Part shown: one piece after another, positions 19,037 through 35,692 of the stretch
How the letters are laid out: each line of letters starts with the position of its first letter
Numbering within the stretch: the stretch's first letter is position 1
Origin: a virus
Taxonomy: Duplodnaviria > Caudoviricetes
Virus record (IMG/VR): IMGVR_UViG_3300029305_003084
DNA: 64,000 nucleotides
Strand: one strand, 5' to 3'
The notes under the pieces: generated by a model
Told to the model about the DNA's origin: nothing
Seen by the model: only the letters and a program-made list of their open reading frames with translations
Database searches by the model: none
Made by a program: the position numbers and the translations under genes

Positions 19037-19071
19037 CTTATAAACAAATTTATAATAAATTTGTTTATAAG
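19037..19071. repeat. palindrome A copy 2
   Basis: Identical to copy 1; followed by hairpin 19084-19118. Confidence 0.95.
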
Positions 19072-19127
19072 TATTAAAAAGTATTAGAAGATATAGGCAA
19101 TTTACCTATATCTTCTAAATATATTAA

Positions 19128-19826: not shown

Positions 19827-19882
19827 CTAATTATATGAATTATATTAATGAAACATTTCATTAATATAATTCATATAATTAG
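19827..19882. repeat. palindrome B copy 1 (27-bp arms, CA centre)
   Basis: CTAATTATATGAATTATATTAATGAAA-CA-TTTCATTAATATAATTCATATAATTAG between divergent genes. Confidence 0.97.
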
Positions 19883-19942
19883 GTTATAAAAGAAAAACAT
19901 ATATGTTTATAAATATAGATTTATATAGGAGGTTAAAATATC

Positions 19943-21643
19943 ATGGGAGTCATAAATAATCTTCCTAATAAAAATAGTGGTAATAGTAGTTCCGGTGGAG
20001 CTTTAATTAAAAAATATCGAGTTGCTTCAGGATATACAGTAAACGCCGGTGATGTTGTTAATGTAAATGATAATAATGAAATTTATTCTACAAATATAAA
20101 AACTGTAGTATATGATGATATTGTAGTACCAAATAATAATAAAAATGCAGAATTTGTTCAAATTAACGATAATACAATATTTGCAGTATATCGTGATTCT
20201 ACTAATTCGTATACATGTTATTGTATTGTAAAGTATATTGATGGTAATTGGACTGTTACATATACTAATAATTTAATAACATCGGGTACTGGTGAAAATT
20301 ATGAAAAAACTATTGTTAAAATGAATGATTATAGATTTTTTGTTACTGAACATGATACTGATAATGAGCCGACTGGTGATTTATATTTCATTCAATTTAA
20401 TAACGATTACTCATCTTCAACAATTGCAAGTATTGCTAATTCAATGAGCAATGATCGAGTAGTAGAAGTATATGAATCACTAAATGAATCCACATTACTT
20501 CAACTTGGTGGCTATTATAATGGTAACAATGGATATGTTGCAGTATACACTTTCGATGGAACTACAATAACAAAAGCCGTAGCTCCTAAGTCAGTATCTT
20601 CTTTCTCTTGTGGTGATGATCGTACGATAATAAAAACTGCAGAAAATAAAGTTATTGTATTATCTGAAGGCGGTAATAGTAGTGTTTCTTCTATATTTGG
20701 AATGACCTGGGATGGTTCAACTCTAACAACAAATAAGCTATTTTCAAATAGTACAAGTTCTGTACCATATGTAATATATCAAAATGATAATATAATTTTA
20801 GTATGTCATAGTTATGCTGGATCTTCATCAGATGCTATTTATAAAATTAGTAATATTACAGCAGATATCCCTACATTTGAGAAGGTAGTTACCACTAATT
20901 ATGAATCACCACTTAGAAGCAATTCTAGTACTACTATGTATTTAACATCTCAAAATAATACTTCATTATTTATAAAAGATAATAATATTTATGAATATAG
21001 TGTAGATTTAAGTACTTATGCATTCAATCTAGTAAACACATACACATTCACTCACTTTAAATCAACTGAAATTACATCATTGGAAAAAGTGGAATCAGGA
21101 ATTAAAATATTCGTGAATAATAAAAATTTTTATGATTTAAAATACAATTTACCAGTTACTGATAATGTCGTATTGTATAATTTAATTGTTTCTAGTTCAT
21201 CTGAATGTATTGCATTAGAATCAGGAAATGAAAATGCTGAAATTAATTGTATTTATTCTGGTTCTGCAGAATTACCAGTAATGAAAAAAGGTGATAAGAT
21301 TATTAGTTCTGGTATAAGTGCATATTGTCGTATTCCTGGAATTATTGAAATTGGTGCAGAGAATAATGAAAATTTCGTAATTGGCAGTTCCAGTAGTAGA
21401 AATATTGTTTTAGGTTTTATGCCAAAATCTATTGAAATTTTATTTAAAGGAACATCTGGTTCAAATACTGTTGTTACGACCTTTATTTCAAATCGTCAAT
21501 TTTCATCTTACACATGTAAATCATCGGGTGATTCATATCCTACACATAATTCATGTAAAATTACATATAATACTGATGGTGTAAGTGTACCATATGTTAA
21601 AACATCTGAAGTTGGCACTTATCAATATAAAGCATACTTTTAA
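19943..21643 (+). CDS. putative receptor-binding/fibre protein, beta-rich
   Basis: MGVINNLPN start; Ser/Thr/Asn-rich; C-terminal LGFMPKSI domain resembling protein 35693. Confidence 0.65.
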   Translation: MGVINNLPNKNSGNSSSGGALIKKYRVASGYTVNAGDVVNVNDNNEIYSTNIKTVVYDDIVVPNNNKNAEFVQINDNTIFAVYRDSTNSYTCYCIVKYIDGNWTVTYTNNLITSGTGENYEKTIVKMNDYRFFVTEHDTDNEPTGDLYFIQFNNDYSSSTIASIANSMSNDRVVEVYESLNESTLLQLGGYYNGNNGYVAVYTFDGTTITKAVAPKSVSSFSCGDDRTIIKTAENKVIVLSEGGNSSVSSIFGMTWDGSTLTTNKLFSNSTSSVPYVIYQNDNIILVCHSYAGSSSDAIYKISNITADIPTFEKVVTTNYESPLRSNSSTTMYLTSQNNTSLFIKDNNIYEYSVDLSTYAFNLVNTYTFTHFKSTEITSLEKVESGIKIFVNNKNFYDLKYNLPVTDNVVLYNLIVSSSSECIALESGNENAEINCIYSGSAELPVMKKGDKIISSGISAYCRIPGIIEIGAENNENFVIGSSSSRNIVLGFMPKSIEILFKGTSGSNTVVTTFISNRQFSSYTCKSSGDSYPTHNSCKITYNTDGVSVPYVKTSEVGTYQYKAYF

Positions 21644-21752
21644 TTAAATAAATCATATATAGAGATATACGAATAATTCGTATATCTCTATTTTTTATTA
21701 TTTATACTATAAAAAACAATCCAGTAATAAAATCAATTAATGGAGGAATATC

Positions 21753-22154
21753 ATGAAATATATTGCACATAGAAGATTTAAAGGAAGAGCAGCTTGTGGT
21801 GATGTTAATATTCCTGCAATGACAGAATTGTATTTAAAAGATAATGTAATTTATTATGAAGAATATCCTATTTGTTATTTTTCATCTGAGAATGCAAAGC
21901 AATATTTTACTGTAAATGAAGATGGACAGGGTATGCTTCGTGGTAAATTAACACAAGCAATTCAAAAGAAATTAGCAATACGAGATGAAAATTATCAGAA
22001 CCGATGGAATAAAATCTGGGAAGATAATTTATGTGTTAAGAAATATAAGAGAAAAGATAGTGGTGAAAACTATTTCTTATGGGATACTGAGTTCTTTAAT
22101 GCTCCTATTCTAGATCTACAGCATATTGCAAGTTTAATTGATGTAAAAGTATAA
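21753..22154 (+). CDS. conserved clostridial-phage hypothetical protein
   Basis: MKYIAHRRFKGRAACGDVNIPA; late motif at 21715-21726. Confidence 0.7.
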   Translation: MKYIAHRRFKGRAACGDVNIPAMTELYLKDNVIYYEEYPICYFSSENAKQYFTVNEDGQGMLRGKLTQAIQKKLAIRDENYQNRWNKIWEDNLCVKKYKRKDSGENYFLWDTEFFNAPILDLQHIASLIDVKV

Positions 22155-22195
22155 AATATAAGAGAATACTGTAAAAATACAGTATTCTCTTTTTA

Positions 22196-22768
22196 TTAAG
22201 CTTTCATTACATAACAAAGTGCATAGTAAGGTGGTCTGTTCTCATGAGCTTGTCCACCACCAGTTTTTCCAATTGATCCGCTAAGTGATTTGGCGGATAT
22301 ATTATAATCGTTAGCTCTATTTGAATTTTCAAATGTCGTTGTAGCAGTCGATATATTAGTATAAAAATTATAATTACTACTGTTACTAAATGTATGTGTA
22401 TGACTAGGCATTTGATTGGTCGTTAATGTTACAGTATCACTACCACCTGTAGCACCAACAGTATATGTACTACCAGCACCAACAATAAATCTATTTCGTA
22501 AATCAGGAGTACCATTAGTACCATCACACAGTAACCAACCATTAGGAATTGCATTAGATGCACCTGACCATAACACAATCATACCAGAAGGAATTCCTGA
22601 ATTGTTTTTTAACGAATCTAGTTCTGTAGATAGTCCAGTAATATCTGATGTACTATGAGAATGTGTTTTTACATCAGCATTTTTCATATTAGATACATCA
22701 GTTTTTAAATTTTTAATATCTTCAATAGTATCTGGATTGTCAGATAATATATTATTTAAAATTGACAT
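22196..22768 (-). CDS. short tail fibre with tail-collar domain
   Basis: IPSGMIVLWSG...GWLLCDGTNGTPDLRNRFIVGAG, HTHT, HENRPPYYAL; MSILNNILS start. Confidence 0.85.
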   Translation of the reverse strand: MSILNNILSDNPDTIEDIKNLKTDVSNMKNADVKTHSHSTSDITGLSTELDSLKNNSGIPSGMIVLWSGASNAIPNGWLLCDGTNGTPDLRNRFIVGAGSTYTVGATGGSDTVTLTTNQMPSHTHTFSNSSNYNFYTNISTATTTFENSNRANDYNISAKSLSGSIGKTGGGQAHENRPPYYALCYVMKA

Positions 22769-22810
22769 ATATATTACCTCCTATGTTAATGAATTAATCG
22801 TGTTAGTATG

Positions 22811-22866
22811 CTAATTATATGAATTATATTAATGAAACATTTCATTAATATAATTCATATAATTAG
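22811..22866. repeat. palindrome B copy 2, followed by a second 34-bp palindrome at 22869-22902
   Basis: Identical to copy 1; TATAAAAGAGAAACATATATGTTTCTCTTTTATA follows. Confidence 0.97.
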
Positions 22867-22922
22867 GTTATAAAAGAGAAACATATATGTTTCTCTTTTA
22901 TATTTTTAAGGAGGGAAATAGA

Positions 22923-24773
22923 ATGGCTATTGAATCAATTTTTCCTGACAAAGCTAGTGATACATCTTCTTCATATGAAGTAGGTGATATGAGAAATAGT
23001 ATAAAGAGTTATTTAGGTGAAGAGTGGGTATTATGTGATGGTCGTAAGGTTGATGAATCATTATATCCTGAAATATCTCAATATTTAGAAAAAGGTAATG
23101 CATTAGAAGAAAGTTATTCTAGTAAATATTTAAGTGATTCAAATACGGTAACTCCAGGTGGTATATATTATCACAATGGTGTTTGGTGTATGGTCGGATA
23201 TGTATACCATACAACTGCTTCAAAAGCCACATATTATCCATATTCATACCATACTACCGATCCATCTGGTGAATGGAAAGAGACTAAAATGGGTAATAGT
23301 ACCAGTTATATAACTGATGTATGTTATCATGATGGATTATGGGTTGCTTGTGGTTACGACAAAAGCAGTCATTATGGTCGAATTTGGTATTCTGATAATT
23401 TAGATAATGGATGGACTGAATATACTGCTACATCTAAAATGGATCGATTTTCATGCATTCATTATCATGATGGAATGTGGGTAATTGGCGGCACATATGT
23501 TAGTTATGAATCGGCAATATATTATACTACTGATATAAAATCAAAATCTTGGACTAGAGTAAGTTTATCATCATATGAAGATTACAATGGAATAATTTCT
23601 ATTAATTACGTCAATGGTTATTGGGTTGCTGGATGTAAAGGTGCTGGTGGTATTTTCTATACTACTGATCCATCTGGTACGTGGAGTCAAATGCCTATTG
23701 GTAGTAATATTAGTACACTTTCAGGAATGAACCATATATCGTATTATGACAATAAATATGTTGTTATTTCGGGACGTGGTGGAAGTGGTGGTTCTCCACT
23801 TCACTTACATGTATATTATACACCATCATTAAATACTCAATTAACAGGACGTACTACAATACTTACAAATAGTAGTGCATATCGCAGTCCTAATGTATCA
23901 TACAATAATGGGTTATATACAATTTTATCAATATATGATGGATATAATACATTATCGTATACTAGAAATCCATTAGATGCCTGGACAATTAAACAAATAT
24001 CACAATATACAACTACAAATGAAATTTTATCAGAAATATATACAACTGGTGATCAAACAGTTATGGTTGGATATAATGGTAGTACATTTTATCCATATAT
24101 TACATATACTGGGAAATCAGAATATATTATTCCTACAATAAATAATATTTCAGATATTAATACTTTTATTAAAGTGAAATCATCTAATAGTGGTTATAAT
24201 TTACCTAGTGGGTATATGTTATTAGATTATATTGAGTCATCTGGTACTCAGTATATTGATACTGGATTTACACCTAATCAAGATACAAGAGCAGTATTAG
24301 ATTTATGGGTAACAAATAATGCGAGTGGAAATGTAGCATTATTCGGTGCAAGACAAGGTACAAAAGTTACTACATTTGCAGTATGGCTTGGAGATGGTGT
24401 TGTTAATCCTCAGTATGGTTCTATTGCATATAACACCAAAACCTTAACTCTAGATTATGCAACACGATTAACTTACGATATGAATAAAACTGCATTTTCT
24501 GTAAATGGGCAGACTGTTACATTTGCAAGTGAAACTTTCTCTGCTGGATGTAACTTAACTTTATTATCTGTAAATACTGCAGGTGCTGTTGATACTCGTA
24601 TAAGTGTAGGTAAATTATATTCTTGTAAATTATATGATAATGGTACATTAATTAGAGACTATATTCCTGTAATGAATGAATTTGGTGTAGCAGGTCTTTG
24701 GGATTTAGTAGAAAAGAAATTCTATGGTAGTGCTACATCTACAGCATTTATTGCTGGTAATATTTTAGCATAA
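22923..24773 (+). CDS. fibre protein: collar-like N-terminus, propeller-like repeats, C-terminal LPSGY domain
   Basis: WVLCDG...YPEI, YTTDPSGTW repeats, LPSGYMLLDYIESSGTQYIDTG. Confidence 0.75.
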   Translation: MAIESIFPDKASDTSSSYEVGDMRNSIKSYLGEEWVLCDGRKVDESLYPEISQYLEKGNALEESYSSKYLSDSNTVTPGGIYYHNGVWCMVGYVYHTTASKATYYPYSYHTTDPSGEWKETKMGNSTSYITDVCYHDGLWVACGYDKSSHYGRIWYSDNLDNGWTEYTATSKMDRFSCIHYHDGMWVIGGTYVSYESAIYYTTDIKSKSWTRVSLSSYEDYNGIISINYVNGYWVAGCKGAGGIFYTTDPSGTWSQMPIGSNISTLSGMNHISYYDNKYVVISGRGGSGGSPLHLHVYYTPSLNTQLTGRTTILTNSSAYRSPNVSYNNGLYTILSIYDGYNTLSYTRNPLDAWTIKQISQYTTTNEILSEIYTTGDQTVMVGYNGSTFYPYITYTGKSEYIIPTINNISDINTFIKVKSSNSGYNLPSGYMLLDYIESSGTQYIDTGFTPNQDTRAVLDLWVTNNASGNVALFGARQGTKVTTFAVWLGDGVVNPQYGSIAYNTKTLTLDYATRLTYDMNKTAFSVNGQTVTFASETFSAGCNLTLLSVNTAGAVDTRISVGKLYSCKLYDNGTLIRDYIPVMNEFGVAGLWDLVEKKFYGSATSTAFIAGNILA

Positions 24774-24786
24774 GGAGGAAAATAAT

Positions 24787-26517
24787 ATGCCTCTAGTTTC
24801 TTCATTTTCCTCTGGTAGTTCAGGGGATAAATATCAAGTTGGTCAATTAAGACAGAGTTTAAGAAAATATTTAGGTGAAAATTGGGTAAAGTGTGATGGT
24901 AGTATTATTGATGAAACTGACTATCCTGAGTTATGTAAAAAAATGTACATAACATCAGATTTGGAAAATAATTGGGTTGCAAAAAAAGTATATAATTCTG
25001 CATCTGATATACCAAATATACAAAGTATATATTGTTATAACGGTACTTGGGCTATGATTGGACATCCCACTTCTGAAGCAACTAGTAAATATCCATATGT
25101 TTATTATACTAATGATATTACTGGCACTTGGAATGAAGTTAAATTTAATTTTGGTGGTGCACGTTTATATAATATTCGGTGTTATAATGGTCTATGGTTA
25201 ATTACCGGAAATTCTACAATATATTATACAACAGATTTATCTAGTTCATGGAATAAAATATCTTTAAATGGATATTTATGTAATATAGAATATGGTGATG
25301 GGTTATATGTGACTGCGTATTCTGATACTACTAATCTCACAAATCATGTTTACTATACCAATGATCCTACTGGGACTTGGACACTGATAACATTACCTAA
25401 TGTTAATTACTCCATATCTAAAATACAAAAGGTTATGTATGTCAATGACATATGGTATATATTTGCTATCAGTAGTAATAGGAATATAGTTTTGTGGTAT
25501 ACAGATGATCCTACTGGGACTTGGACTGGAAAATTAGTTACTACAGATAATGCATCATATTTATATGATATATGCTATCATAATAATATGTGGGTTGCAT
25601 GTGGTGATACTACCAATAGTATAGACGGATATTCAGTTATTTGGTATACAAATGATCCTACTAGAACTTGGAATAAAATTCAATCAAATAACACAGATGA
25701 TCCAGCTATAAAGTCAATAATGTATCATGGTGGTAGATGGATAGGTCTCACAGGTAAAGATTATTATCCATATATTTATTATACTAATCATCCTGCTGAA
25801 ACATGGACACTAACTCAAATTGCTAAAGATGTTACCCAGTCCGGAACATGCATGTATATATACAATAACGATATTGTAATCGGATCTAATAGTACATCAT
25901 ACGGACCTTATGTAATTTATCATAATAGTTCATATTATCAACTACCTGAAGCAAATAATACTTTTATTAAAGTAATGGAAAATGAATATACATTGCCTAC
26001 TGGTTATACCAGATTAGAGTATATTGAAAACAATTCTGATGCGTATATTGACTCTGGACTTGTTGTAAATAAAACTGATACATATGAATATATGATAGAT
26101 GCATTGTTCACAAATGATACATTTGCTGGTGCAAATGGTTATATGCAATTTAAGAGTGGAATAGCATCTAATACACGATCTAAGATTAGAGTAACTTATG
26201 ACGGTTCATCTAATGTAGAAAATATTTATGTTAATAATACATTAAATTCATCTACTGATTGGACCGATTCATATAATGGTACAAATGTAAAAATTGGTAT
26301 TTTAAAAATGGGTAATGCTGATAATACATGGTACGATAATAATGCTCAGACTGGTAAAGTATATGCACAAAGTATTAAAAAAGATGGAAAATTAGTTAGA
26401 AATTATATTCCTGTAATGAATGATTCCGGTGTAGTTGGTCTTTGGGATCTAGTAGAAAAGAGATTCTACGGTAGTGCTACATCTACAGCATTTATTGCTG
26501 GAACTAAACTATCATAA
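24787..26517 (+). CDS. fibre protein, paralog of 22923
   Basis: WVKCDG...YPEL, YTNDPTGTW repeats, LPTGYTRLEYIE domain. Confidence 0.75.
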   Translation: MPLVSSFSSGSSGDKYQVGQLRQSLRKYLGENWVKCDGSIIDETDYPELCKKMYITSDLENNWVAKKVYNSASDIPNIQSIYCYNGTWAMIGHPTSEATSKYPYVYYTNDITGTWNEVKFNFGGARLYNIRCYNGLWLITGNSTIYYTTDLSSSWNKISLNGYLCNIEYGDGLYVTAYSDTTNLTNHVYYTNDPTGTWTLITLPNVNYSISKIQKVMYVNDIWYIFAISSNRNIVLWYTDDPTGTWTGKLVTTDNASYLYDICYHNNMWVACGDTTNSIDGYSVIWYTNDPTRTWNKIQSNNTDDPAIKSIMYHGGRWIGLTGKDYYPYIYYTNHPAETWTLTQIAKDVTQSGTCMYIYNNDIVIGSNSTSYGPYVIYHNSSYYQLPEANNTFIKVMENEYTLPTGYTRLEYIENNSDAYIDSGLVVNKTDTYEYMIDALFTNDTFAGANGYMQFKSGIASNTRSKIRVTYDGSSNVENIYVNNTLNSSTDWTDSYNGTNVKIGILKMGNADNTWYDNNAQTGKVYAQSIKKDGKLVRNYIPVMNDSGVVGLWDLVEKRFYGSATSTAFIAGTKLS

Positions 26518-26534
26518 GTAAGGAGGGATAATAC

Positions 26535-27803
26535 ATGGCTATTTTATCAAATTTTGATAGTTCTTCTAATATCGTTTCATTAGAAGGTTATGAACTAGGC
26601 GATGTTGAATCCTTCGCTAGTTCAGATATAGAGTTAGATGAAACTTGGTTAAAATGTGATGGTAGTAATGTTGATGAGTCAAAATATCCTGAATTATCTC
26701 AGTATTTAACCAATAAAATTGACCCATCTTCAAGTGGATGGACTGTGAAAAAAATAAACAATAATACCAAAATAAAATTAATGAGTATTTATTACTATGA
26801 CGGATTGTGGGTAGGATGTGGATACACTCAAGCTAATAATTATCCGTGTATATTATATACGACTGACCCATCATCCACATGGACAACAAAAACACTCCAA
26901 TCATCAATAATATATACTAATTCAATTTATTGCTATAATGGTACATGGGTAATATGTGGTGCTACGGGTACAGGTCTTCCAATAATATATTATACCAATG
27001 ACCCTACTGGAACATGGACATATAAACAAATATCAACTTCTGGTGGTAATACTAATAGTTGTGATTCTATATATTGTTATAATGGTATGTGGGTAATTAC
27101 ACATTCAAAAACTAATGGGTATCCAGTAATTTATTATACAACTGATCCTACTGGAACATGGACGAGAACAGAAGTACAGACAGGATATTATGCTGGAATT
27201 CATAAAGTATATTGCTATAATGGTATATGGGTTCTATGTTTATGTTCTAATGTAAATAGTTATCCTGCACGTATTTGGTATACAACTGACCCTAGTGGAA
27301 CATGGACACAACAAAATATAGACACTTCAGTGACTGTACAAATAACTGATATATATCATCATAATGGATTATGGGTTGCATCAGGAAAGCATTATTCTTC
27401 AAATTTTCAATACTTTTTCTATTCAAAAGATCTCACTGGAACATGGTCGTCATTTATGAGTGATTTCTCTACAACAAATTTTAATGGTGCTTACACTTAT
27501 CCATTATACTGTCATAACGGTACATGGTTAATGGGTTCTACATCATATAGTACAAATGGTACATCAACTATATATTTAACATATAGTAATGATTTATCAA
27601 AAGGATATCAGGTTGTAGCATTACATAATAAAGTTGGTACATATGCTGTATTAACAGATATTTATGGTAATGAAGATACTGTATGTATAGCTGCATATGG
27701 TGATAATAGTAGTGAATATCCTTATATTTTATATAATAAGGGAAAATTAGTATTACCTAACACATCTTCTACCAATCCAAATACATACGTTAAAGCAAAA
27801 TAA
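26535..27803 (+). CDS. fibre protein, paralog lacking the C-terminal LPSGY domain
   Basis: WLKCDG...YPEL, regular YCYNGxW/YTTDPTGTW repeats. Confidence 0.75.
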   Translation: MAILSNFDSSSNIVSLEGYELGDVESFASSDIELDETWLKCDGSNVDESKYPELSQYLTNKIDPSSSGWTVKKINNNTKIKLMSIYYYDGLWVGCGYTQANNYPCILYTTDPSSTWTTKTLQSSIIYTNSIYCYNGTWVICGATGTGLPIIYYTNDPTGTWTYKQISTSGGNTNSCDSIYCYNGMWVITHSKTNGYPVIYYTTDPTGTWTRTEVQTGYYAGIHKVYCYNGIWVLCLCSNVNSYPARIWYTTDPSGTWTQQNIDTSVTVQITDIYHHNGLWVASGKHYSSNFQYFFYSKDLTGTWSSFMSDFSTTNFNGAYTYPLYCHNGTWLMGSTSYSTNGTSTIYLTYSNDLSKGYQVVALHNKVGTYAVLTDIYGNEDTVCIAAYGDNSSEYPYILYNKGKLVLPNTSSTNPNTYVKAK

Positions 27804-27862
27804 ATTATTAGAGATATATAGATTATTTAATAATCTATATATCTCTTTTTATAATGAATATA

Positions 27863-28213
27863 TTATGAATTATATTGGATATAATAAAATTCAAATACAG
27901 AAGTAAGTGTTCCTTGTTTAATATAAATGAATGGATAATCATGATATGTCATGCTATCTTTATATGGTGCAGAGTACCAATAAGTTCCAGTATATATTGA
28001 CCCCGGTAAATGTTTATATGACATTTCACCATCTACCCAAATTGCAATAATGCAATCATTTTTATTTGGTGTTATTCCTGCCGCAGTAACATAGCTTGTT
28101 AAATTCAATTCCCCTTGATAATATTGTGCTGAGTGAATTTTAGTTATTTTCAACCCTTTTGTTGATTGTGTATTATAACCAAGAAAAGGTGCGAAGTTAT
28201 CTATAATAGACAT
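27863..28213 (-). CDS. small cassette protein
   Basis: MSIIDNFAPFLG start; paralog of 28323 (SYVTAxGIxP, DYP). Confidence 0.7.
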   Translation of the reverse strand: MSIIDNFAPFLGYNTQSTKGLKITKIHSAQYYQGELNLTSYVTAAGITPNKNDCIIAIWVDGEMSYKHLPGSIYTGTYWYSAPYKDSMTYHDYPFIYIKQGTLTSVFEFYYIQYNS

Positions 28214-28227
28214 TTCTCATACATCCC

Positions 28228-28264
28228 CCTTATAAACAAATTTATAATAAATTTGTTTATAAGG
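28228..28264. repeat. palindrome A copy 3
   Basis: Same core; followed by hairpin 28272-28314 nearly identical to 19084-19118. Confidence 0.95.
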
Positions 28265-28322
28265 ATAAAAAATATTTAGAAGATATAGGCACTTTACCTA
28301 TATCTTCTAAATATATTATAAT

Positions 28323-28703
28323 TTAATATCGTACATAATACACATCAATATTATTAAAATGAGAATTATAATTCAATACAACACATGGATAATCATATTC
28401 TTCCTGATTATAATTCCAGTTTAATTTTTGGGTATTTCCATTATAAGTACATGTACTCATTCTTAAATCCATACGTCTAATAACCGATGAACTATCACTT
28501 GGAATGGTTAGTATTAGATCACCTTTTTGTGGTACGATACCTAATGCAGTTACATATGAACTCATATCAAATCTTTGATTATCACCAGTAACACTTTCAC
28601 CAATAATTGTCGTTAATTTTACAATTGTACATTTCCAATCAGATTTATTGGATGAACCTCCACCTGCTCCAAGAAAAGGAGAAAAGCTATTTACTATAGA
28701 CAT
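28323..28703 (-). CDS. small cassette protein
   Basis: MSIVNSFSPFLG start; paralog of 27863. Confidence 0.7.
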   Translation of the reverse strand: MSIVNSFSPFLGAGGGSSNKSDWKCTIVKLTTIIGESVTGDNQRFDMSSYVTALGIVPQKGDLILTIPSDSSSVIRRMDLRMSTCTYNGNTQKLNWNYNQEEYDYPCVVLNYNSHFNNIDVYYVRY

Positions 28704-28751
28704 ATTTATTACCTCCTATAATAAATACTATATATTGTTTATGTTAGTATG

Positions 28752-28807
28752 CTAATTATATGAATTATATTAATGAAACATTTCATTAATATAATTCATA
28801 TAATTAG
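28752..28807. repeat. palindrome B copy 3
   Basis: Identical to copies 1 and 2. Confidence 0.97.
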
Positions 28808-28862
28808 GTTATAAAAGAGAAACAATGTGTTCATTAATATAGATTTAGATAGGAGGTAATTT

Positions 28863-29365
28863 ATGTCTATTATTGAAAATTTCTCATTCGCTTCCAATAT
28901 TGGGGTAATAGTTCTCTCGAATTATTAAAAACCACCACAATTTTATTTACTGGTGAAGCACCAGCTTCACCATATGATACAATTGGTATTGTACCAGAGT
29001 TTAATAATATTGATTTAAGTGAATATGAATATATTGAATATGAATTTTAGTGGAGTGATGACAGGTTATGGTACATCACTTACTTGTCAAATAGCATGTA
29101 CGACTAATTTTGAATTTTTTAGTTTAAAATTAGATTCAAGTTCAGATACTTTAACTCTAAATGACTATAAATTGGTTTATACAAAAGACGTTATGAAAGT
29201 GGATCATGGAAATATACCACAGATTCTAATACAGCAACTGTTGATAAATCATTTGATAATATATTGGAATGGAATAATAGTACTTATGTAATATATGATC
29301 CACGTATATTATTTGTTAGAGGTTCTTCAACAACTTTAACAATTTTATTATACGGAAAGAAATGA
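28863..29365 (+). pseudogene. frameshifted cassette gene (three 1-nt indels in homopolymer runs)
   Basis: AGGAGG SD, MSIIENFSF start, stop at 28926; later frames give SLELLKT, IDLSEYEYI and LLYGKK-stop like gene 18320. Confidence 0.7.
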
Positions 29366-29448
29366 TATAAGACAGATATACATATATACATATATATATA
29401 TATTCATTTTATATCATAAATTTTTGATAACAGAAAGGAGATATATGT

Positions 29449-29790
29449 ATGCCGATTTTAAATAATATGTCACCTTTTATTGGAATAAGTGGTTCCAATG
29501 AAAGTTTATTCACAATAATTAAAGAAGAGACACCTTCTTCTGATTATAGTCAAGTCATTACATTTGAAAATGGTGCAAATGGTTTATATATAAAATTAGT
29601 AAATGGTTCTAGACATATATTTGATGCAAGTGCAGATTATTCTCTCATTAATGGATATATCGGTTCTTTAAGATATGGAAATAATTCAGAAATTCAACTA
29701 TATTATGAAAATAATGGGGTTTATTTAAAAGATGATTACGAGTATAATATAAATCGATATGTATTAGAAATTAAGCAAATTAAATTTTAA
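29449..29790 (+). CDS. small cassette protein
   Basis: MPILNNMSPFIG start, AAGGAG SD. Confidence 0.7.
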   Translation: MPILNNMSPFIGISGSNESLFTIIKEETPSSDYSQVITFENGANGLYIKLVNGSRHIFDASADYSLINGYIGSLRYGNNSEIQLYYENNGVYLKDDYEYNINRYVLEIKQIKF

Positions 29791-29809
29791 TATTCAATTA
29801 ATATTTTAT

Positions 29810-29847
29810 CCTATTAAACAAATTTATTTATAAATTTGTTTAATAGG
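29810..29847. repeat. palindrome A copy 4 (variant with compensatory changes)
   Basis: CCTATTAAACAAATTTAT-TT-ATAAATTTGTTTAATAGG overlapping the AGGAGG SD. Confidence 0.9.
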
Positions 29848-29858
29848 AGGATAGAACT

Positions 29859-30512
29859 ATGTCTATCGTCGATAATTTTTCTCCATATCTTGGTGGTACT
29901 TCCCTAAAATCCCAAACAAAAGGTACGGCAACTCCTGATAAATTATTAGATGGAGAAACTTCTTGGGTAAATGGTGAAGAAATTACAGGTACTATGCCAA
30001 ATCAAGGAGCAGTATCATCTTCTTTAAATTGTGGTGGGAGTTATACAATTCCTGAAGGATATCATGATGGTAATGGTAAAGTTACTGCAAATAGTCTAGC
30101 TAGTCAGACAAGTGCTACTGCAACTTCTGATAAAATTATTAGTCCTTATACTGCATGGGTTAATGGTGTTAAATTAACTGGTACTGGAAGTTCTGGTTAT
30201 AAAATTGAAACTGGAACTAGAACTATGGGAGGTTCATCAGTATATATTCCATTATCAACAATAACTAATGTTGAAGGATTTATGGCTATATGCGTTGATA
30301 GTGGTTCATCAAGTGATAATCCCGTTTATGGTGTAACATCATTATCAAATTATATTACATACACAGTTGCGGGTTCATCAACAACATTTAATAAAGCTAA
30401 TAATTTTAGTATAACGTATGGAAATAAATATATTCAAGTGGATGGTATAACACAATCATCTAATTCATATTTTGTTGATGGTGATTATGCATATGTAGTT
30501 TGGGGTAATTAA
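29859..30512 (+). CDS. tail-fibre-like cassette protein
   Basis: MSIVDNFSPYLG start; WVNGxxxTGT repeats and YTIPEGYHDGNGKV motif. Confidence 0.75.
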   Translation: MSIVDNFSPYLGGTSLKSQTKGTATPDKLLDGETSWVNGEEITGTMPNQGAVSSSLNCGGSYTIPEGYHDGNGKVTANSLASQTSATATSDKIISPYTAWVNGVKLTGTGSSGYKIETGTRTMGGSSVYIPLSTITNVEGFMAICVDSGSSSDNPVYGVTSLSNYITYTVAGSSTTFNKANNFSITYGNKYIQVDGITQSSNSYFVDGDYAYVVWGN

Positions 30513-30608
30513 ATTTATTAGAGATATAGGATTTTATTATCCTATATCTCTAATTTTTCCTATATATAAAACATTACTTTAAATAAAGAAAATAAGAATA
30601 AAAGGTCG

Positions 30609-31445
30609 GTGAATACTATGAAAGAGCAACTTGCGGCATATCTTGTCATGGAATCAATGACTGATCCCATGCCTGTCAAGAATGTCCAGTTCCATAATAA
30701 AAATGATCTTTTTTATGTAAGATTTGATACTACATTACAGGATTTCAATGTCCGCAATCGTAATAACCGTATTTATATGGGTAATGCAATGATTCCTTCA
30801 CTTATGGCTGAACATATCATGGAACTACAATCAAAGGGTTCTTGGGTAGGTGAAGCAGGTCATCCTATGTCTGATGATATTAAGAGAATCTTAACTATTG
30901 ATCCTAAATTAGTTTCTCATAGAATCGTAAAGCATGAAGCAAATATGTCTAGATGTACTGGTACAGTTGAGACTTTAGATAATGATTTGGGTAGACAGAT
31001 GACAAAATTAATTCTTCAGGGAATTGAGCCTGCTTTTAGTTTAAGAGCACTAGCTCCTCTAGTTAAGAGACCTGATGGTGTTAGTATTGTAAAAACTAAG
31101 GCACATGTAGTTACATATGACTGGGTTTTCCTTCCTTCTCATAAAGTAGCATATAGAGATACCTCTAAGCCTATTGAAAAGATTTGTAAGAATGTAATGG
31201 AATCTGGTAACGGTATGGATCATCACTCTTTACTACCTGTACAAGAAGCTATGATTACTGATTTCATCGCTATGGAATCTGCTAATGTAAAGCTAATTTC
31301 TAATGTATGTGAAGTTGCATTAGAATCTATGCAGTTAAGTAAAGATACCAGACATGTTATTTTAAAGGAAGCTGGTAATACATATATAGTTCCTTTAGAA
31401 GAAAAGATTAGAACTGATATTTCTCAGTATATGAGAAATATTTAA
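30609..31445 (+). CDS. prohead maturation protease
   Basis: RNRNNRIY, GEAGHP, FSLRA, TYDWVFLPSH motifs; late motif at 30570-30581. Confidence 0.85.
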   Translation: MNTMKEQLAAYLVMESMTDPMPVKNVQFHNKNDLFYVRFDTTLQDFNVRNRNNRIYMGNAMIPSLMAEHIMELQSKGSWVGEAGHPMSDDIKRILTIDPKLVSHRIVKHEANMSRCTGTVETLDNDLGRQMTKLILQGIEPAFSLRALAPLVKRPDGVSIVKTKAHVVTYDWVFLPSHKVAYRDTSKPIEKICKNVMESGNGMDHHSLLPVQEAMITDFIAMESANVKLISNVCEVALESMQLSKDTRHVILKEAGNTYIVPLEEKIRTDISQYMRNI

Positions 31446-31466
31446 AATAAAAGGGGATGGAATAAA

Positions 31467-31811
31467 ATGGATAAGAAAGTAATTAAAGTTTTTATTTCTC
31501 AGCCTATGGGAAATAGAACAGAAGAAGAAATTTTAAAAGAAAGAAAAGATATTGAAAATCGATTAAAAGAATTTTATGAAAATATTGAGATTATTGATAC
31601 ATACTTTACTGATAATGCTGGTCCTATCGAATGTCTCGGTAAGAGTATTGGTATGTTAAAGGATGCTGACCTTGTTGTATTTGCTGATGAGTATAGATTA
31701 GCAAGAGGTTGTCGTATTGAAAATATGGTATGTCTTGAGTACGGTATTAGATGCATTAGTAATCTATACAACGATTACTACTTAGAAAGTGTATTTAAAT
31801 CATTCAAATAA
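31467..31811 (+). CDS. DUF4406 / nucleoside-deoxyribosyltransferase-like protein
   Basis: VFISQPM...DADLVVF...ARGCRIE. Confidence 0.65.
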   Translation: MDKKVIKVFISQPMGNRTEEEILKERKDIENRLKEFYENIEIIDTYFTDNAGPIECLGKSIGMLKDADLVVFADEYRLARGCRIENMVCLEYGIRCISNLYNDYYLESVFKSFK

Positions 31812-31857
31812 TATAAATTAGAGAATATAGGAAAATATCCTATATTCTCTAATATTT

Positions 31858-32151
31858 TTATACTAAACCTTGAAGTAGTAAAGCACCATTAATTTCTTCT
31901 AAAGATACAACTTCTTCAGTACCATGAAGTGCATTTTCTTTTAATGCAAATACAGTATCTTTAACAGTATTAACAGTAACTTCTTCTTTAGTTTCTTCAT
32001 CAATATGAGTGTAGGTGAAAGGTAATTTTACACATACACCTTCAGCTTCATTCATGTTACAAGGTACATAAGACCCGTTTTGATGAAGCTTAATATATAC
32101 AGCGGTTTCTGAATAACCGATTAATGAATTGTCTTTAGTAATTTTATACAT
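31858..32151 (-). CDS. small tail-associated hypothetical protein
   Basis: MYKITKD...YIKLHQNGSYVPC...AEG; downstream of DUF6273-like genes. Confidence 0.6.
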   Translation of the reverse strand: MYKITKDNSLIGYSETAVYIKLHQNGSYVPCNMNEAEGVCVKLPFTYTHIDEETKEEVTVNTVKDTVFALKENALHGTEEVVSLEEINGALLLQGLV

Positions 32152-32172
32152 AATATATTACCTCCATTTATG

Positions 32173-33015
32173 TTAAATGGTAATTAATGGAACGAAACCA
32201 TAAGAATATGAACCTTCCATAGCACCAGCATATGAACTACCCATCTCATATAATATTGCACAATATTTACCAGCTTTTTTATATGAAGGAGATCTAGTCC
32301 ACCATGAACATGGTGTAGTTGGATTATCATGTCTATATCTATCTTTAGAATTTCCAGCAGCATAATATGCTAATTGTTTTTGATAATTTTGCTCATAATT
32401 ATTAGCTATACTTCTAGTACCCATTACTTCAAATTCAGCAGGAACATATACTGTTTCTGTTGTTGTTGTGACATATTGAGACATACTTAAACCACTACCA
32501 GTATTACATGTATAGACAGTTCTAGATCTTAATATTGATTGTAGCTCTGATGGTAATGTATTCTTAAACTCGGCACAAATTAATGTTCTTAGATTAGAAT
32601 CTTGCCATCCTTCACTAATACCATCAGAATCATGGTCATGGTTAAAATAATCATTCATAATTGTACTGTTATATCCACTATCAACAAAAGCTATATCAAT
32701 GCCATTAGTTAATGTAGATTTACCAAATCCGCAAAGTATATGAGATTCACCATTTGTTTCAACATCTTTATTATGATCAAATGCCAATATTTGCATACAT
32801 ACTTTTGTATTGTTAAAAGTTAATCCAATACCAATAGAGCCATTTAATGTTACTTCTTTTACATCACCAACTGAAAAATAATTAGCTGCAACTCCAGTAT
32901 CGATTATGGTTTTAATATCTTCCCAAGATATATCATTAAATGGGGTGCCAATAGTAGGGAAGTTTGACGGTGCTACTAGAGGATTAACAATACCACTCAT
33001 AATAATTTTTCCCAT
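32173..33015 (-). CDS. DUF6273-like receptor-binding protein
   Basis: SWEDI, FSVGDVK, GWQDSNLR, AEFEVMG, WWTRSP...YGFVP. Confidence 0.75.
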   Translation of the reverse strand: MGKIIMSGIVNPLVAPSNFPTIGTPFNDISWEDIKTIIDTGVAANYFSVGDVKEVTLNGSIGIGLTFNNTKVCMQILAFDHNKDVETNGESHILCGFGKSTLTNGIDIAFVDSGYNSTIMNDYFNHDHDSDGISEGWQDSNLRTLICAEFKNTLPSELQSILRSRTVYTCNTGSGLSMSQYVTTTTETVYVPAEFEVMGTRSIANNYEQNYQKQLAYYAAGNSKDRYRHDNPTTPCSWWTRSPSYKKAGKYCAILYEMGSSYAGAMEGSYSYGFVPLITI

Positions 33016-33035
33016 AATATATTACCTCCCCATTA

Positions 33036-33980
33036 TTAAACTGCAAATATAGGACCGACGATATAGAAATATTTACAATCAATACTACTAATCGTTCCTG
33101 AATCACTAATAATTAAAAATTTATTTAATGAATCTGTTGGAACAGAACGTAAAAAACATCTTCCCCCAGATATACTTTCAACACTTGTCCCCTCATCAAA
33201 AATAAAATTTTTTAATTTACTATTTCCAGCAGCATAATATGCGTACTGTTTTTGATAATTTTGTTCATATTGATTTGCATATTTTCGAGTTCCAAATACT
33301 TCAAATTCTGATAATATTGGCAAATAATCTATAGTTGAAGTAACATTACTGGATACGTTACTATTTCCAGCTACATTATTTGAATATTTTATGATGGATT
33401 TCATAACAGATCGAAGATCTTCAGGTAATGTTGACATGAGTGTATTATTTACAGGATTTGTTGTGCATGTATCAGTTGGATTATTACCAGTACGCCCAGA
33501 AGAAGGAGAACTACCATAATTAGAAGGAGGTTGATTGGTACTTCCAAGAAAATCGTATCGTAAATCACATCCAGCCCATCCACCATAATTATAATTACCC
33601 CAATGATTCATATTAGAACCAATACCACCATTAGTTGCACTAGCCCAATAGTTTGTTCCAATACCTATATCATATCCTTTAACTTTACCAATACTAAAAT
33701 GAATGTGGTTTTCGCCTTCTATTTCAGAATTATGATTTATGCCTAAAATATATACATCAATAGCATAATTCGAAAATGTTCTACCATATGAAGAATTACC
33801 CAATTGACCATTTAAAATGATAGTTTTTGTATCACCAACTGAAAAATAATCAGCAGCAATACCAGCATTGGAAATTTTACGAATATCTTTCCAACTCATA
33901 TCATTTAAGTTAGTTCCGATTGGAGGTAATGCTATAGGCATAGTGGATTTTGACGCACCAGAGATAATAATTTTTCCCAT
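33036..33980 (-). CDS. DUF6273-like receptor-binding protein
   Basis: SWKDI, FSVGDTK, NYGGWAGCDLR, LSEFEVFG, QYAYYAAGNSK. Confidence 0.75.
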   Translation of the reverse strand: MGKIIISGASKSTMPIALPPIGTNLNDMSWKDIRKISNAGIAADYFSVGDTKTIILNGQLGNSSYGRTFSNYAIDVYILGINHNSEIEGENHIHFSIGKVKGYDIGIGTNYWASATNGGIGSNMNHWGNYNYGGWAGCDLRYDFLGSTNQPPSNYGSSPSSGRTGNNPTDTCTTNPVNNTLMSTLPEDLRSVMKSIIKYSNNVAGNSNVSSNVTSTIDYLPILSEFEVFGTRKYANQYEQNYQKQYAYYAAGNSKLKNFIFDEGTSVESISGGRCFLRSVPTDSLNKFLIISDSGTISSIDCKYFYIVGPIFAV

Positions 33981-33992
33981 AATAATACCCCC

Positions 33993-35177
33993 TTAAGCAG
34001 CAGAACCTGCAACAAATGCAGTAGAACTTGTACTTGCACAGAACTCTTTATTTACTAAATCCCAAAAACCAGCAACATTAGAAGAATTTTTGCAAGGAAC
34101 ATAATGTCGTATTAATGTACCATTATCATAGATTTGACAAGAATACATTTTAGCCGAAACATATCCAGAAATAGTTCCAGCAGTATTACATGCAAATAAA
34201 GCCAGATTAGTATTACTTTGGAATGTAGTAGCTGTCCATGTTTTATTATAACCATTAATTGTTAACGAATTCTTATTATAATCAATACTTAGTCTTTCAG
34301 TTATTGTAATACTTGAAAAAGCATATCTGTTATTACTACTACTATAGTCAGAATTCCAAGTACTACCACTTAATAAAAATACACTTTTTGAACCAGACGC
34401 TGTAGAATCACGACCTTCGAACAGCCATGCATGAGAAGAAGGTTGTGATGTAACCTGAGCATCAACAACAACTCGTGTATTCTGATTATGTTTAAAACCA
34501 GTGTCTAAATACTGGCTACCAGTAGATTCAATATATGATAATCTAGTATATCCGCTAGGTAGTGATATAATATAACCTGCATTAAATGCAGTTGAACTTG
34601 CACTACTATAGAATGTTTTACCAACAGTATCATACATACCAACAGTACCAGAAGAATTAACACATGGTACAAAGTTTCGAACTAATGTACCATTATCATA
34701 AATTTTACAATTTTTAATTTTACCACTGGAGCAGGTTTTTGCTGTACCAGCATCATTTGTACTAAATAAATATATAGAATAAGGGGATGAGAATGTATTT
34801 GCTGATGTGTATGTACCATCAGTAACAGTATCAGTTTTATTTACTGTAGTTACATCCTTATTTTTATCAATATGAGTAGCAGATGTTGATGTAACATATA
34901 TTTCATGTGCAACGTTATAGTCAGTTCTGATTTTACTATTTACAAATAGCATACTGAAGTTAACATTGGTACTAGTTCGTGCACCAAAAATCCAACAAGT
35001 TGTACTTGTATTGGGAAAATCACAATCCATTACAACACGAGTATCTTGATTTGGATTAAACCCAGTATCTAAATATTGTGTACCGGTAGACTCAATATAT
35101 GATAATCGAGTATATCCACTGGGCAATCCATTAAAACTATGATTACTACCTTTTCTTAAATATAGAATGTGGCCCAT
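33993..35177 (-). CDS. fibre protein with two tandem LPSGYTRLSYIESTG domains
   Basis: Internal duplication; domain shared with 22923 and 24787. Confidence 0.75.
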   Translation of the reverse strand: MGHILYLRKGSNHSFNGLPSGYTRLSYIESTGTQYLDTGFNPNQDTRVVMDCDFPNTSTTCWIFGARTSTNVNFSMLFVNSKIRTDYNVAHEIYVTSTSATHIDKNKDVTTVNKTDTVTDGTYTSANTFSSPYSIYLFSTNDAGTAKTCSSGKIKNCKIYDNGTLVRNFVPCVNSSGTVGMYDTVGKTFYSSASSTAFNAGYIISLPSGYTRLSYIESTGSQYLDTGFKHNQNTRVVVDAQVTSQPSSHAWLFEGRDSTASGSKSVFLLSGSTWNSDYSSSNNRYAFSSITITERLSIDYNKNSLTINGYNKTWTATTFQSNTNLALFACNTAGTISGYVSAKMYSCQIYDNGTLIRHYVPCKNSSNVAGFWDLVNKEFCASTSSTAFVAGSAA

Positions 35178-35515
35178 TAGACCACCTCCAGAATAAAGGG
35201 AATTTCTACAGTATTTGCATCACCATAGATATAAAACATAGCACCACCATCCACAGTTTCAGCATCACCATTGGTGATAAACTCTAAAAACTGATTGGTT
35301 TCTTCAACATAAGCAGCATAACCATCAGTAGTTCTTTCATGAGTATTAATGTTATCTGCCTTACCAGTATGCTTTGCAGTAACACCTTCAATAGCAACAA
35401 ACTGAGTTTTAACACCAGTGTTTTCATCCTCAGTCCAAGTAGTACTGATTACACCAGTAAATACTTTTGCACCAGATCCACCACTGTTGTTATTTAACAT
35501 AGGAATAAAAGCCAT
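35177..35515 (-). CDS. small tail-associated protein
   Basis: AGGAGG SD before ATG 35515; MAFIPMLNNNSG start. Confidence 0.7.
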   Translation of the reverse strand: MAFIPMLNNNSGGSGAKVFTGVISTTWTEDENTGVKTQFVAIEGVTAKHTGKADNINTHERTTDGYAAYVEETNQFLEFITNGDAETVDGGAMFYIYGDANTVEIPFILEVV

Positions 35516-35582
35516 AATATACTTACCTCCTAAATTTATTTTTAGTCTATTATAATAGACATATATGTTTTTCTTATAGATT

Positions 35583-35638
35583 CTTATTATATGTATTTCA
35601 TTAATGAAACATTTCATTAATGAAATACATATAATAAG
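35583..35638. repeat. palindrome B copy 4 (4 compensated substitutions per arm)
   Basis: CTTATTATATGTATTTCATTAATGAAA-CA-TTTCATTAATGAAATACATATAATAAG. Confidence 0.95.
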
Positions 35639-35692
35639 CTTCAATTTAAATAACAATAAATACATATATTCATACAGAAGGGATGATTGAAT

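Follow-up and report, generated by a model that had tools for sequence, protein, structure and literature searches.

A predicted AR9-type late promoter on the dyad of a repeated 56-bp palindrome in a jumbo phage fibre cluster, and a possible two-base-pair switch of its direction

Introduction

A 56-bp palindrome, referred to here as palindrome B, occurs four times between divergent fibre-type genes of a giant gut phage, an uncultured 247-kb AR9-like jumbo phage. Why would a phage place such a sequence between its fibre genes, and what do the two central base pairs do? We addressed these questions in a stretch of 64,000 nucleotides (the window), in the complete genome and in public sequence collections.

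Results

Four copies of palindrome B between divergent genes

The initial annotation had described 27-bp arms around CA in three identical copies and a compensated fourth, and this was borne out by the coordinates and the comparison of the arms. The copies B1, B2 and B3 are identical in sequence, each with perfect 27-nt arms flanking CA. The fourth copy, B4, has the same length and centre. In each of its arms, four bases are substituted (positions 3, 12, 16 and 17, counted from the outer end), and the opposite arm mirrors every change exactly. The centre reads CA on the plus strand in all four copies.

Palindrome B1: 19827..19882, no strand; 27-nt arms, CA at 19854-19855
Palindrome B2: 22811..22866, no strand; identical to B1
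Palindrome B3: 28752..28807, no strand; identical to B1
Palindrome B4: 35583..35638, no strand; four mirrored substitutions per arm, flanks swapped relative to B1-B3

The 22-nt core gave eight strand-matches in the window, compared with 0.04 expected from shuffles. In the complete 247-kb genome, palindrome B is present in these four copies only, which are the longest perfect palindromes of the genome, and no lone half-site was found there with up to six mismatches allowed. Perfect palindromes are also kept as terminators in this genome, which means that palindrome B is not distinguished by its perfect symmetry alone; the terminator-like palindromes look unlike it. An intrinsic bidirectional terminator was defined by a GC-containing stem, flanking T/A runs and a position between convergent genes. 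The copies of palindrome B have no T run and lie between divergent gene starts.

Indeed, a minus-strand gene stands to the left and a plus-strand gene to the right of every copy, and these genes have strong AGGAGG ribosome sites. The placement between divergent genes and the N-termini quoted in the initial annotation held for all four copies. One quoted pair, MSIVNSFS and MSIIENFS, stood as N-termini only, since the MSIIENFS partner at 28863 is not an intact gene: it meets a stop after 21 codons, past which coding goes on in other frames to about 29365.

B1-left operon: 17641..19787, minus strand; three genes of fibre type, the first with a PTR phage tail repeat; lacks a sense-oriented consensus late promoter
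B1-right gene: 19943..21643, plus strand; 566 aa, begins MGVINNLPNK; now on the promoter side
B2-left gene: 22196..22768, minus strand; 190-aa tail-collar fibre protein; no consensus late promoter
B2-right operon: 22923..27803, plus strand; three paralogous propeller-like fibre proteins of 616, 576 and 422 aa
B3-left genes: 27863..28703, minus strand; 126 aa and 116 aa, N-termini MSIVNSFSPFLG and MSIIDNFAPFLG
B3-right gene: 28863..29365, plus strand; broken, 21 codons followed by stops and frame changes
B4-left operon: 31858..35515, minus strand; five genes, the first of 112 aa with N-terminus MAFIPMLNNNSG
B4-right gene: 35693..36025, plus strand; 110 aa, N-terminus MSFIPMLINNSG

The likeness between the B4-right and B4-left proteins is confined to the first 21 residues. 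The C-terminal domain of the first B4-left protein is of a widespread fibre-tip type, and its homologues have only this tip domain in common with it and are thus uninformative on the palindrome.

A late-promoter motif on the dyad

The initial annotation had mentioned an exact AACA-TTTCAT-TA in passing. This string is present in all four copies, where it extends to AACA-TTTCAT-TAA, and it turned out to be the key element, since it matches the late-promoter code (AACA-N6-TAA) and lies on the dyad.

Late-promoter motif at B1: 19852..19864, plus strand; AACA-N6-TAA on the dyad, predicted start A at 19863
Late-promoter motif at B2: 22836-22848, plus strand; AACA-N6-TAA on the dyad, predicted start at 22847
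Late-promoter motif at B3: 28777-28789, plus strand; AACA-N6-TAA on the dyad, predicted start at 28788
Late-promoter motif at B4: 35608-35620, plus strand; AACA-N6-TAA on the dyad, predicted start at 35619

The late-promoter consensus of phage AR9 is AACA-N6-TA/G (PMC5312081). In the genome studied here, AACA-N6-TAA was counted at 49 sense positions upstream of genes and at 17 positions within genes; the other spacings (N4, N5, N7 and N8) gave 1-8 and 72-107, respectively. It is found upstream of the capsid, protease and sheath genes, and the motif marks late and structural genes in sense genome-wide, as expected of an AR9-type late promoter. The four centres also carry the AR9-type arrangement, with AACA at -11 to -8 and, after six nucleotides of spacer, T(-1)A(+1). 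Deoxyuridine at template positions -11 and -10 and a late transcript start at the A belong to the definition of this promoter type as well. Read leftward, the centre gives AATG-N6-TA, which stays at background level in the genome. A position weight matrix of the late motif, trained with the palindrome centres left out (training median, 13.6 bits), scored these centres at 14.9-15.2 bits rightward and 2.0-2.3 bits leftward; only 45 of 494,188 positions reached at least 14 bits. A random palindrome of equal composition would hold the motif by chance in 1.7% of cases. Furthermore, palindrome B extends from -36 to +20 relative to the predicted start, and the AR9 non-virion RNA polymerase protects -35 to +20 (PMC9209446).

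The genome has 90 late-motif sites. Eight are inside perfect palindromes whose arms measure 17-27 nt; every one of these belongs to the fibre cluster, where a second palindrome family carries AACA in the stem rather than the loop. The rightward 5' leaders from palindrome B measure 74-80 nt, compared with a usual AACA-to-ATG distance of 33-55 nt in this genome, and no common fold was found among them. A consensus late motif in sense is missing from all four left-hand genes or operons; AACA-N5-TA to the left of B1 and B3 is an example of a possible weak non-consensus promoter for them.

Other types of promoter and a terminator were considered and rejected. The early (virion RNA polymerase) promoter of the phage, with the consensus TTTCAAnTATATATTATA, occurs in 52 intergenic copies, all of them outside the fibre cluster, and its TATATATTAT core leaves three mismatches to the palindrome arm in our own alignment. 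TATAAT strings in the arms recall a host sigma-70-type promoter, yet the best -35 candidate, GAAACA, is poor by our reading. An RNA hairpin or terminator was set aside because the predicted start lies within the right arm, so that the full hairpin would never be transcribed. The 64 units of the phage's TIGR guide arrays, compared with all eight palindromes by crude 8-mer seeds, gave only low-complexity AT matches.

An AR9-type transcription system in the phage

The major capsid protein has 25% identity to that of AR9, which makes the phage a distant relative of AR9 and PBS1. A homologue of gp226, the promoter-specificity subunit of AR9, was found (E 9e-12, residues 9-246, with one in-frame stop within the match), together with two Rpb2_6 hits as matches to RNA polymerase beta-like proteins. 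The phage thus encodes both the specificity subunit and the multisubunit polymerases of an AR9-type system.

Possible inversion of the centre and turnover of the palindromes

A chance reading frame crosses B4, and we used it as a reporter of the orientation of the B4 centre in other public contigs.

Chance reading frame over B4: 35177..35665, minus strand; 162 codons, codon 19 (TGT) holds the 2-bp centre

Each full-length flanking protein is encoded exactly on 7-10 public contigs in JGI/IMG, ENA and Logan, among them a 5,804-bp and a 247,184-bp contig. A protein with Cys19 (P0008; codon TGT, in which TG is the centre) was found on six public contigs. One other contig, of 9,784 bp, has an otherwise identical protein with His19 (P0007). 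Since histidine is encoded by CAT or CAC, His19 requires CA, the exact inverse of the B4 centre, as read from the protein record. This suggests that the His19 contig is a natural variant with an inverted B4 centre, although an assembly artefact at a perfect palindrome is a possible source of the same change. Chance reading frames across the A1, A3 and B1 palindromes, the other candidate reporters, were absent from the protein collection.

The flanks of B4 match those of B1 in swapped order, with local scores of 41 and 29 compared with nulls of about 15-17 (a score of 41 was reached in 0 of 2,000 shuffles; p=0.001 for 29). The centre is unchanged, so relative to its flanks it is flipped between B1-B3 and B4. 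The suggestion that palindrome B seeds inverted duplications does not fit B4, as the flanks of B4 match the two flank types of B1 and not each other. Turnover of another kind is visible in the right flank of B2, where a second perfect palindrome begins 3 bp beyond the arm.

Secondary palindrome beside B2: 22869..22902, no strand; perfect, 34 bp, in the right flank of B2

The B1 and B3 flanks share its left half. The right half has been replaced by the complement of the left, the trace of a templated, palindrome-making conversion.

A short spacer, perfect abutting repeats, unchanged flanks and both orientations, the marks of a minute inversion, are all found here. Of the marks of an inverton, both orientations in natural populations are present for B4 only, as read from the protein, and a recombinase accompanying the element was not found. 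No Resolvase (PF00239) or Phage_integrase (PF00589) domain was detected in the 247-kb genome by a search that did find them in control genomes. The paired cores of opposite polarity that mark hix, gix and cix sites were not seen either, all four cores being CA on the plus strand. The initial annotation had offered four roles for palindrome B, namely operator of a dimeric protein, cruciform, recombination site with a 2-bp core and seed of inverted duplications. It is upheld in part: the inverted B4 variant supports its ideas that the 2-bp asymmetric centre matters and that orientation switching is worth looking for, and the lack of a serine or tyrosine recombinase and the common direction of the four cores speak against a classical recombination site. 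The operator and cruciform roles are weighed as rivals below.

Relatives of the phage and of the locus

The exact core and degenerate palindrome patterns had no match in viral and metagenome contig collections. A single genome-contig match, in a Mycoplasma MAG, proved to be a terminator-like hairpin unrelated to palindrome B and was regarded as a chance hit. Locus searches at the protein level, with B1-right, B4-left and an alignment of four paralogues as queries, found no relatives, and megablast against GenBank phages gave no match. The capsid protein search detected one sister phage (62% identity). Its late-promoter code and the genome-wide pattern of this code are alike, its protease gene is in the opposite orientation, and it has neither the fibre cluster nor any palindromic promoter.

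Discussion

We consider it probable that palindrome B is an AR9-type late promoter placed on a dyad, that its two central base pairs set the direction of transcription, and that the centre flips without a dedicated recombinase. Promoter activity and direction are predictions transferred from AR9. The phage's own non-virion RNA polymerase would read palindrome B as a late promoter, and the 56 bp would cover the entire expected contact zone of this enzyme. Since all but the central CA is mirror-symmetric, these 2 bp (promoter positions -9 and -8) alone would decide the direction. With CA on the plus strand, the right-hand fibre genes would be transcribed; with TG, the left-hand operon, which otherwise has no consensus late promoter, would be transcribed instead. 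The centre would flip recurrently by one of two routes, exchange between the abutting arms or a hairpin-templated strand switch as the DNA is replicated. The population would then carry both states and express alternative fibre proteins with a common N-terminal docking peptide. As counterpoints, the four copies in this genome have the same polarity, B3 faces a broken gene, and the rightward leaders exceed the usual length. A wider version of this reading, which we put forward tentatively and at somewhat less than even chance, is that of a recombinase-free 2-bp switch driven by self-templated strand exchange, in which eight palindromic late promoters would yield many combinations of receptor-binding proteins per stock. 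This would amount to host-range bet-hedging without a diversity-generating retroelement or an invertase.

Other explanations were weighed against the same observations. Palindrome B may be a late promoter that is static and one-way, with symmetric arms that serve a dimeric phage regulator as its operator. Such a regulator would co-ordinate the fibre operons, and the left genes would depend on weak non-consensus promoters. Symmetry, a position between divergent genes and four copies within one functional cluster are typical of operators, and outward-facing AACA strings stand at conserved offsets beside every copy. These strings lack TA(A), however, and upstream of genes variants of this kind are no commoner than background. 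Fully (100%) symmetric half-sites of 27 bp far exceed what protein operators need, the four exactly mirrored B4 substitutions are unexpected under a single regulator, no regulator candidate was found, and the inverted-centre variant is left unexplained; we regard this account as unlikely. The mirrored substitutions do preserve pairing, as a structure-dependent promoter would demand. Supercoiling or replication would here extrude the AT-rich palindrome as a cruciform or hairpin, whose loop would offer template-strand bases -10 to -8 to a template-reading polymerase, as in the hairpin promoters of phage N4. Single-stranded copies are predicted to fold into 26-bp hairpins (-20.4 and -21.8 kcal/mol; z -10 and -12) with promoter positions -10 to -7 as the 4-nt loop, and the AR9 enzyme recognizes the template strand and can initiate on single-stranded DNA (PMC7598289, PMC9209446). 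But about 80 other late-motif sites and all sister-phage sites do without such a palindrome, and the AACA of the second family is in the stem; this account, too, is unlikely in our view.

The mirrored B4 substitutions could come from a single conversion event if palindrome B is a by-product of palindrome-making replication errors, that is, an inverted duplication of a promoter and gene head whose perfect symmetry is preserved by hairpin-templated repair and whose symmetry and flip have no function. The fresh templated conversion behind the 34-bp palindrome at B2, the similar flanks of B1-B3 as recent duplicates and the broken gene downstream of B3 agree with this. It accounts poorly for two independent palindrome families that each set the asymmetric centre on a critical promoter base, for the confinement of all eight palindromic promoters of the genome to the fibre cluster, for palindrome limits that coincide with the polymerase footprint, and for left operons that are intact and have strong ribosome sites without a consensus promoter of their own. 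We give it a low probability. Finally, symmetric arms around a 2-bp asymmetric core, located within a cluster of fibre genes as they are in Mu and P1, recall the crossover sites of Hin, Gin and Cin, at which an invertase or resolvase would shuffle whole fibre cassettes, and the B4 flanks are inverted relative to B1. Recombination between four cores of equal polarity would give deletion rather than inversion, the sites are in promoters and not within fibre genes, and neither a Resolvase nor a Phage_integrase domain occurs in the 247-kb genome. We hold this to be very unlikely.

The preferred reading, an AR9-type late promoter with a reversible centre, would explain the large fibre-gene sets with one docking peptide in giant gut phages. 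It also carries a warning for annotation, as many fibre genes in such phages may be silent in any single assembly. The idea is testable with existing metagenome reads and the purified AR9-type polymerase system.

Palindrome B resembles the AR9/PBS1 late promoters in motif, spacing and start base (PMC5312081, PMC5449584, PMC9209446), and the phages are alike in gp226, as a homologue here, and in split polymerase genes. It differs in the consensus, which is extended from TA/G to TAA. Moreover, no AR9 promoter has been described on the dyad of a long perfect palindrome or, as predicted here, with its direction set by two central bases. Invertible promoters include fimS of E. coli, the Bacteroides capsule invertons and the C. 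difficile flagellar switch (PMC10403206, PMC11868660). Like palindrome B, they place a promoter between two outputs, vary in orientation within a population and need inverted repeats. Their inverted segments measure 150-300 bp, are bounded by short repeats and depend on a tyrosine or serine recombinase, whereas palindrome B would invert 2 bp between abutting 27-bp repeats, with no recombinase found encoded. The hairpin-associated minute inversions of plastids (Kelchner and Wendel 1996, as cited in PMC12371153) resemble the proposed mechanism in that, as presented there, a short spacer enclosed by perfect inverted repeats flips recurrently with no dedicated enzyme and unchanged flanks. In that account they are neutral non-coding markers, whereas the spacer of palindrome B is part of the key element of a predicted promoter.

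To our knowledge, phase-variable promoters need dedicated recombinases. Phages switch host range by means of invertases (Mu, P1) or diversity-generating retroelements. Gin, Cin and Hin invert tail-fibre or flagellin segments at sites with 2-bp cores; the inverted kilobases hold alternative C-terminal gene parts, and an invertase and an enhancer are needed. The proposed switch is like Gin and Cin in that alternative phage fibre proteins would be chosen by a DNA flip, but this phage has neither invertase nor enhancer. If the proposal is correct, palindrome B would represent a much smaller type of switch, with its direction stored in 2 bp and flipped by ordinary replication or recombination.

Copies of palindrome B and their gene setting

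The window was drawn from a 247,146-bp IMG/VR virus record with a G+C content of about 29%. The phage is distantly related to Bacillus phage AR9/PBS1 and to the staphylococcal jumbo phages, with 25% identity between its capsid protein and that of AR9. It encodes two polymerase beta-like segments and a homologue (E 9e-12) of gp226, the subunit that gives the AR9 non-virion RNA polymerase its promoter specificity. The initial annotation had described palindrome B as three identical copies and a fourth with mirrored arm changes, and this was confirmed.

Copies of palindrome B
B1, 19827-19882: perfect 27-nt arms around CA; sequence identical to B2 and B3
B2, 22811-22866: perfect 27-nt arms around CA; sequence identical to B1 and B3
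B3, 28752-28807: perfect 27-nt arms around CA; sequence identical to B1 and B2
B4, 35583-35638: four substitutions per arm, each exactly mirrored in the opposite arm

These four copies are the only ones in the whole genome and its longest perfect palindromes, and the + strand centre is CA in all four. The 22-nt core gives 8 strand-matches against 0.04 expected, and no isolated half-site of palindrome B was found in the whole genome. The hairpins formed by the copies as single-stranded DNA have 26 bp and folding energies of -20.4 and -21.8 kcal/mol (z -10 and -12). An unrelated hairpin with GATGCG...CGCATC arms has an identical 22-nt core at its tip; it lies in a Mycoplasma MAG (CAMNSE010000003.1, 1.1-Mb genome; L025 2810-2870), and the match is probably due to chance in AT-rich DNA.

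All four copies lie inside an 18-kb cluster of tail-fibre-type genes (17.6-36 kb), with matches to phage tail repeat, collar, Gp10_C, propeller-like and DUF6273. The proposed divergent-gene setting held: each copy is flanked by two genes that point away from it, one to each side, with related N-terminal peptides and strong ribosome sites. At B4, the resemblance is confined to the first 21 residues. Each left-hand gene is the first of an operon of one to five genes, and all four lack a consensus late motif in sense orientation. The right-hand gene at B3 (28863-29365; starts MSIIENFS) is broken; after 21 codons it runs into in-frame stops and shifts frame at least once, and its end is like that of its paralogues (...LLYGKK). 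About 13 fibre-type genes (17641-36025) have the start peptide M-x-I-x-[ND]-N-[FIL]-[SP]... in common, with finer variants common to the partners at one palindrome, e.g. FIPML at B4. At least 43 further phage proteins have the C-terminal 90-aa domain of the B4-left protein, joined to different fibre repeats.

The palindrome centre as a probable one-way late promoter

Two motifs dominate the upstream regions, TTTCAAnTATATATTATA and AACA-N6-TAA. The former, a putative early promoter similar to the early consensus of AR9 (PMC5312081), has 52 intergenic copies in the whole genome (e.g. window 8409, 13848, 44751, 45501, 46538 and 49237) and none within the fibre cluster. A conserved ...ATCGTAAA... 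stretch often lies about 20 nt upstream of it, and some early leaders open with perfect hairpins (e.g. 82697-82739 and 86556-86603). To the left of the window in the genome, a divergent intergenic region (window -54376 to -54325) holds a perfect palindrome with 24-nt arms, made of two variants of the early motif (TAGATATTAT) back to back.

AACA-N6-TAA is the AR9 late consensus with one further conserved A. It occurs in sense at 49 sites in the 100 nt preceding a gene, vs. 17 inside genes; with a spacer of 4, 5, 7 or 8, the same string gives 1-8 upstream vs. 72-107 inside genes. The capsid, protease and sheath genes have it upstream, and the usual distance to the ATG is 33-55 nt. The same pattern was obtained in the sister phage, a relative found by its capsid protein (62% identity), with 39 upstream and 29 genic sites for N6 and 0-3 and 76-109 for other spacings. 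The capsid promoter region (38512-38539) is a palindrome with 12-nt arms around TAAC; its + strand carries two AACA-N6-TA motifs that overlap, and the mirror arm contains an AACA.

The AACA-TTTCAT-TA string reported initially is indeed present at the B centre, where it reads AACA-TTTCAT-TAA on the + strand. Scored with a training set of 43 promoters that left out the B centres (median 13.6 bits), these centres reached 14.9-15.2 bits, and 45 of 494,188 positions in the genome reach 14 bits. The mirror reading (AATG...) scored 2.0-2.3 bits, and AATG-N6-TA upstream of genes is at background level. A random palindrome of equal composition holds the motif on either strand in 1.7% of cases. The asymmetric bases of the centre correspond to -9 and -8 of the promoter. 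Counted from the predicted start at 19863, the palindrome covers -36 to +20, close to the template-strand footprint of the AR9 holoenzyme, -35 to +20 (PMC9209446); thus, the symmetric part is what the polymerase would touch. A flipped centre would give the polymerase unchanged surroundings and the opposite direction. The late-promoter reading of palindrome B is well supported and, in our judgement, probable; if B is a late promoter, its direction is set by the 2-bp centre. At B3, the consensus direction is currently toward the broken gene.

Maintained symmetry and inversion of the centre

The B4 flanks are homologous to those of B1 in swapped order, with the register kept. B4-left vs. B1-right gave a local score of 41 (null 16.7 +/- 3.2; reached in 0 of 2,000 shuffles) and B4-right vs. 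B1-left a score of 29 (p=0.001), whereas unswapped pairs were at chance level. This indicates that B4 derived from the ancestral unit of B1 in inverted orientation. The B4 centre is still CA despite the inversion, and has therefore flipped relative to its flanks. Since the split, the flanks have diverged by about 35-40%, and the arms have altered at four positions, always in both arms. Hence information passes between the arms, or selection keeps them able to pair. The B2-right leader contains a perfect 34-bp palindrome (22869-22902), whose left half is common to B1 and B3 and whose right half was rewritten as the complement of the left; B1 and B3 retain the earlier form, which is not palindromic. 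A templated (quasi-palindrome) conversion is clearly seen here.

A chance 162-codon frame crosses B4 (35177-35665, - strand), and the TG of its codon 19, TGT, is the B4 centre. Its exact protein (P0008) is on six public contigs. The cluster mate P0007, on a separate 9,784-bp JGI/IMG contig, differs solely by His at residue 19. The arm fixes the third base, so His19 requires CA. Among the 15 changes possible, this one exactly inverts TG. The orientation switching raised initially thus gains a candidate case, a flip inferred from protein; the promoter on that contig would point left, to the five-gene B4-left operon (31858..35515, -). His19 may instead be an assembly artefact at a perfect palindrome, although k-mers of at least 30 or any read spanning the 56 bp would resolve the orientation. 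At least two flips appear documented, one evolutionary (B4 vs. B1) and one in the wild variant.

A second palindrome family and the sister phage

The genome has 90 AACA-N6-TAA sites. Eight of them lie in perfect palindromes (arms 17-27 nt), every one within the fibre cluster.

Palindromes of the second family
18228-18262: 17-19-nt arms, centre A
19037-19071: 17-19-nt arms, centre A
28228-28264: 17-19-nt arms, centre A
29809-29848: 17-19-nt arms, centre TT

Here each arm holds AACA-AATTTA-T, and the start base comes from the asymmetric centre. Each palindrome overlaps the ribosome site of a gene; the consensus direction (13.4-16.0 bits) leads away from that gene, and the gene-sense direction scored 4.7-11.0 bits. 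In a read-through transcript, that ribosome site would pair in the hairpin.

No palindromic late promoter was found in the sister phage, indicating that promoter function does not need palindromy. Homologues of the 17.6-30.5 kb fibre-cluster genes were also not found there. At 155-157 kb of the sister phage (G001), the protease gene adjoins, and is divergent from, the homologue of 36178-37785; in our phage (31467-36025), the protease is reversed and about 4.6 kb with B4 and its operons lie in between. A TIGR-type array is present at 64121-65803 (repeats GATTCATT and GATACTAT), and a crude seed search of its guide pairs against the palindromes gave no match.

Alternative explanations and known systems

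Given the uniform polarity of all cores and the absence of Resolvase and Phage_integrase domains, the recombination-site role in the initial annotation is unlikely. An operator for a dimeric protein does not explain the 27-bp perfect half-sites, the mirrored substitutions or the flipped variant. Presentation of the promoter as a cruciform is possible and could coexist with flipping. Template positions -10 to -7 would sit in the hairpin loop, and in AR9 the polymerase recognises the template strand and can use DNA that is single-stranded. It is also possible that the palindromes are functionless by-products of palindrome-making replication errors, but this leaves unexplained why the only asymmetric bases are critical promoter positions in both families, and why palindrome B and the footprint have matching limits. 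That the 2-bp centre of the late promoter flips often and serves as a switch is a proposal to which we give roughly even weight.

The promoter type is already known in AR9; a literature search found no paper on palindromic AR9-type promoters or a 2-bp promoter flip. Known invertible promoters differ in being recombinase-dependent, with 150-300 bp inverted. In plastid DNA, hairpin spacers invert without a recombinase, as neutral changes (PMC12371153).
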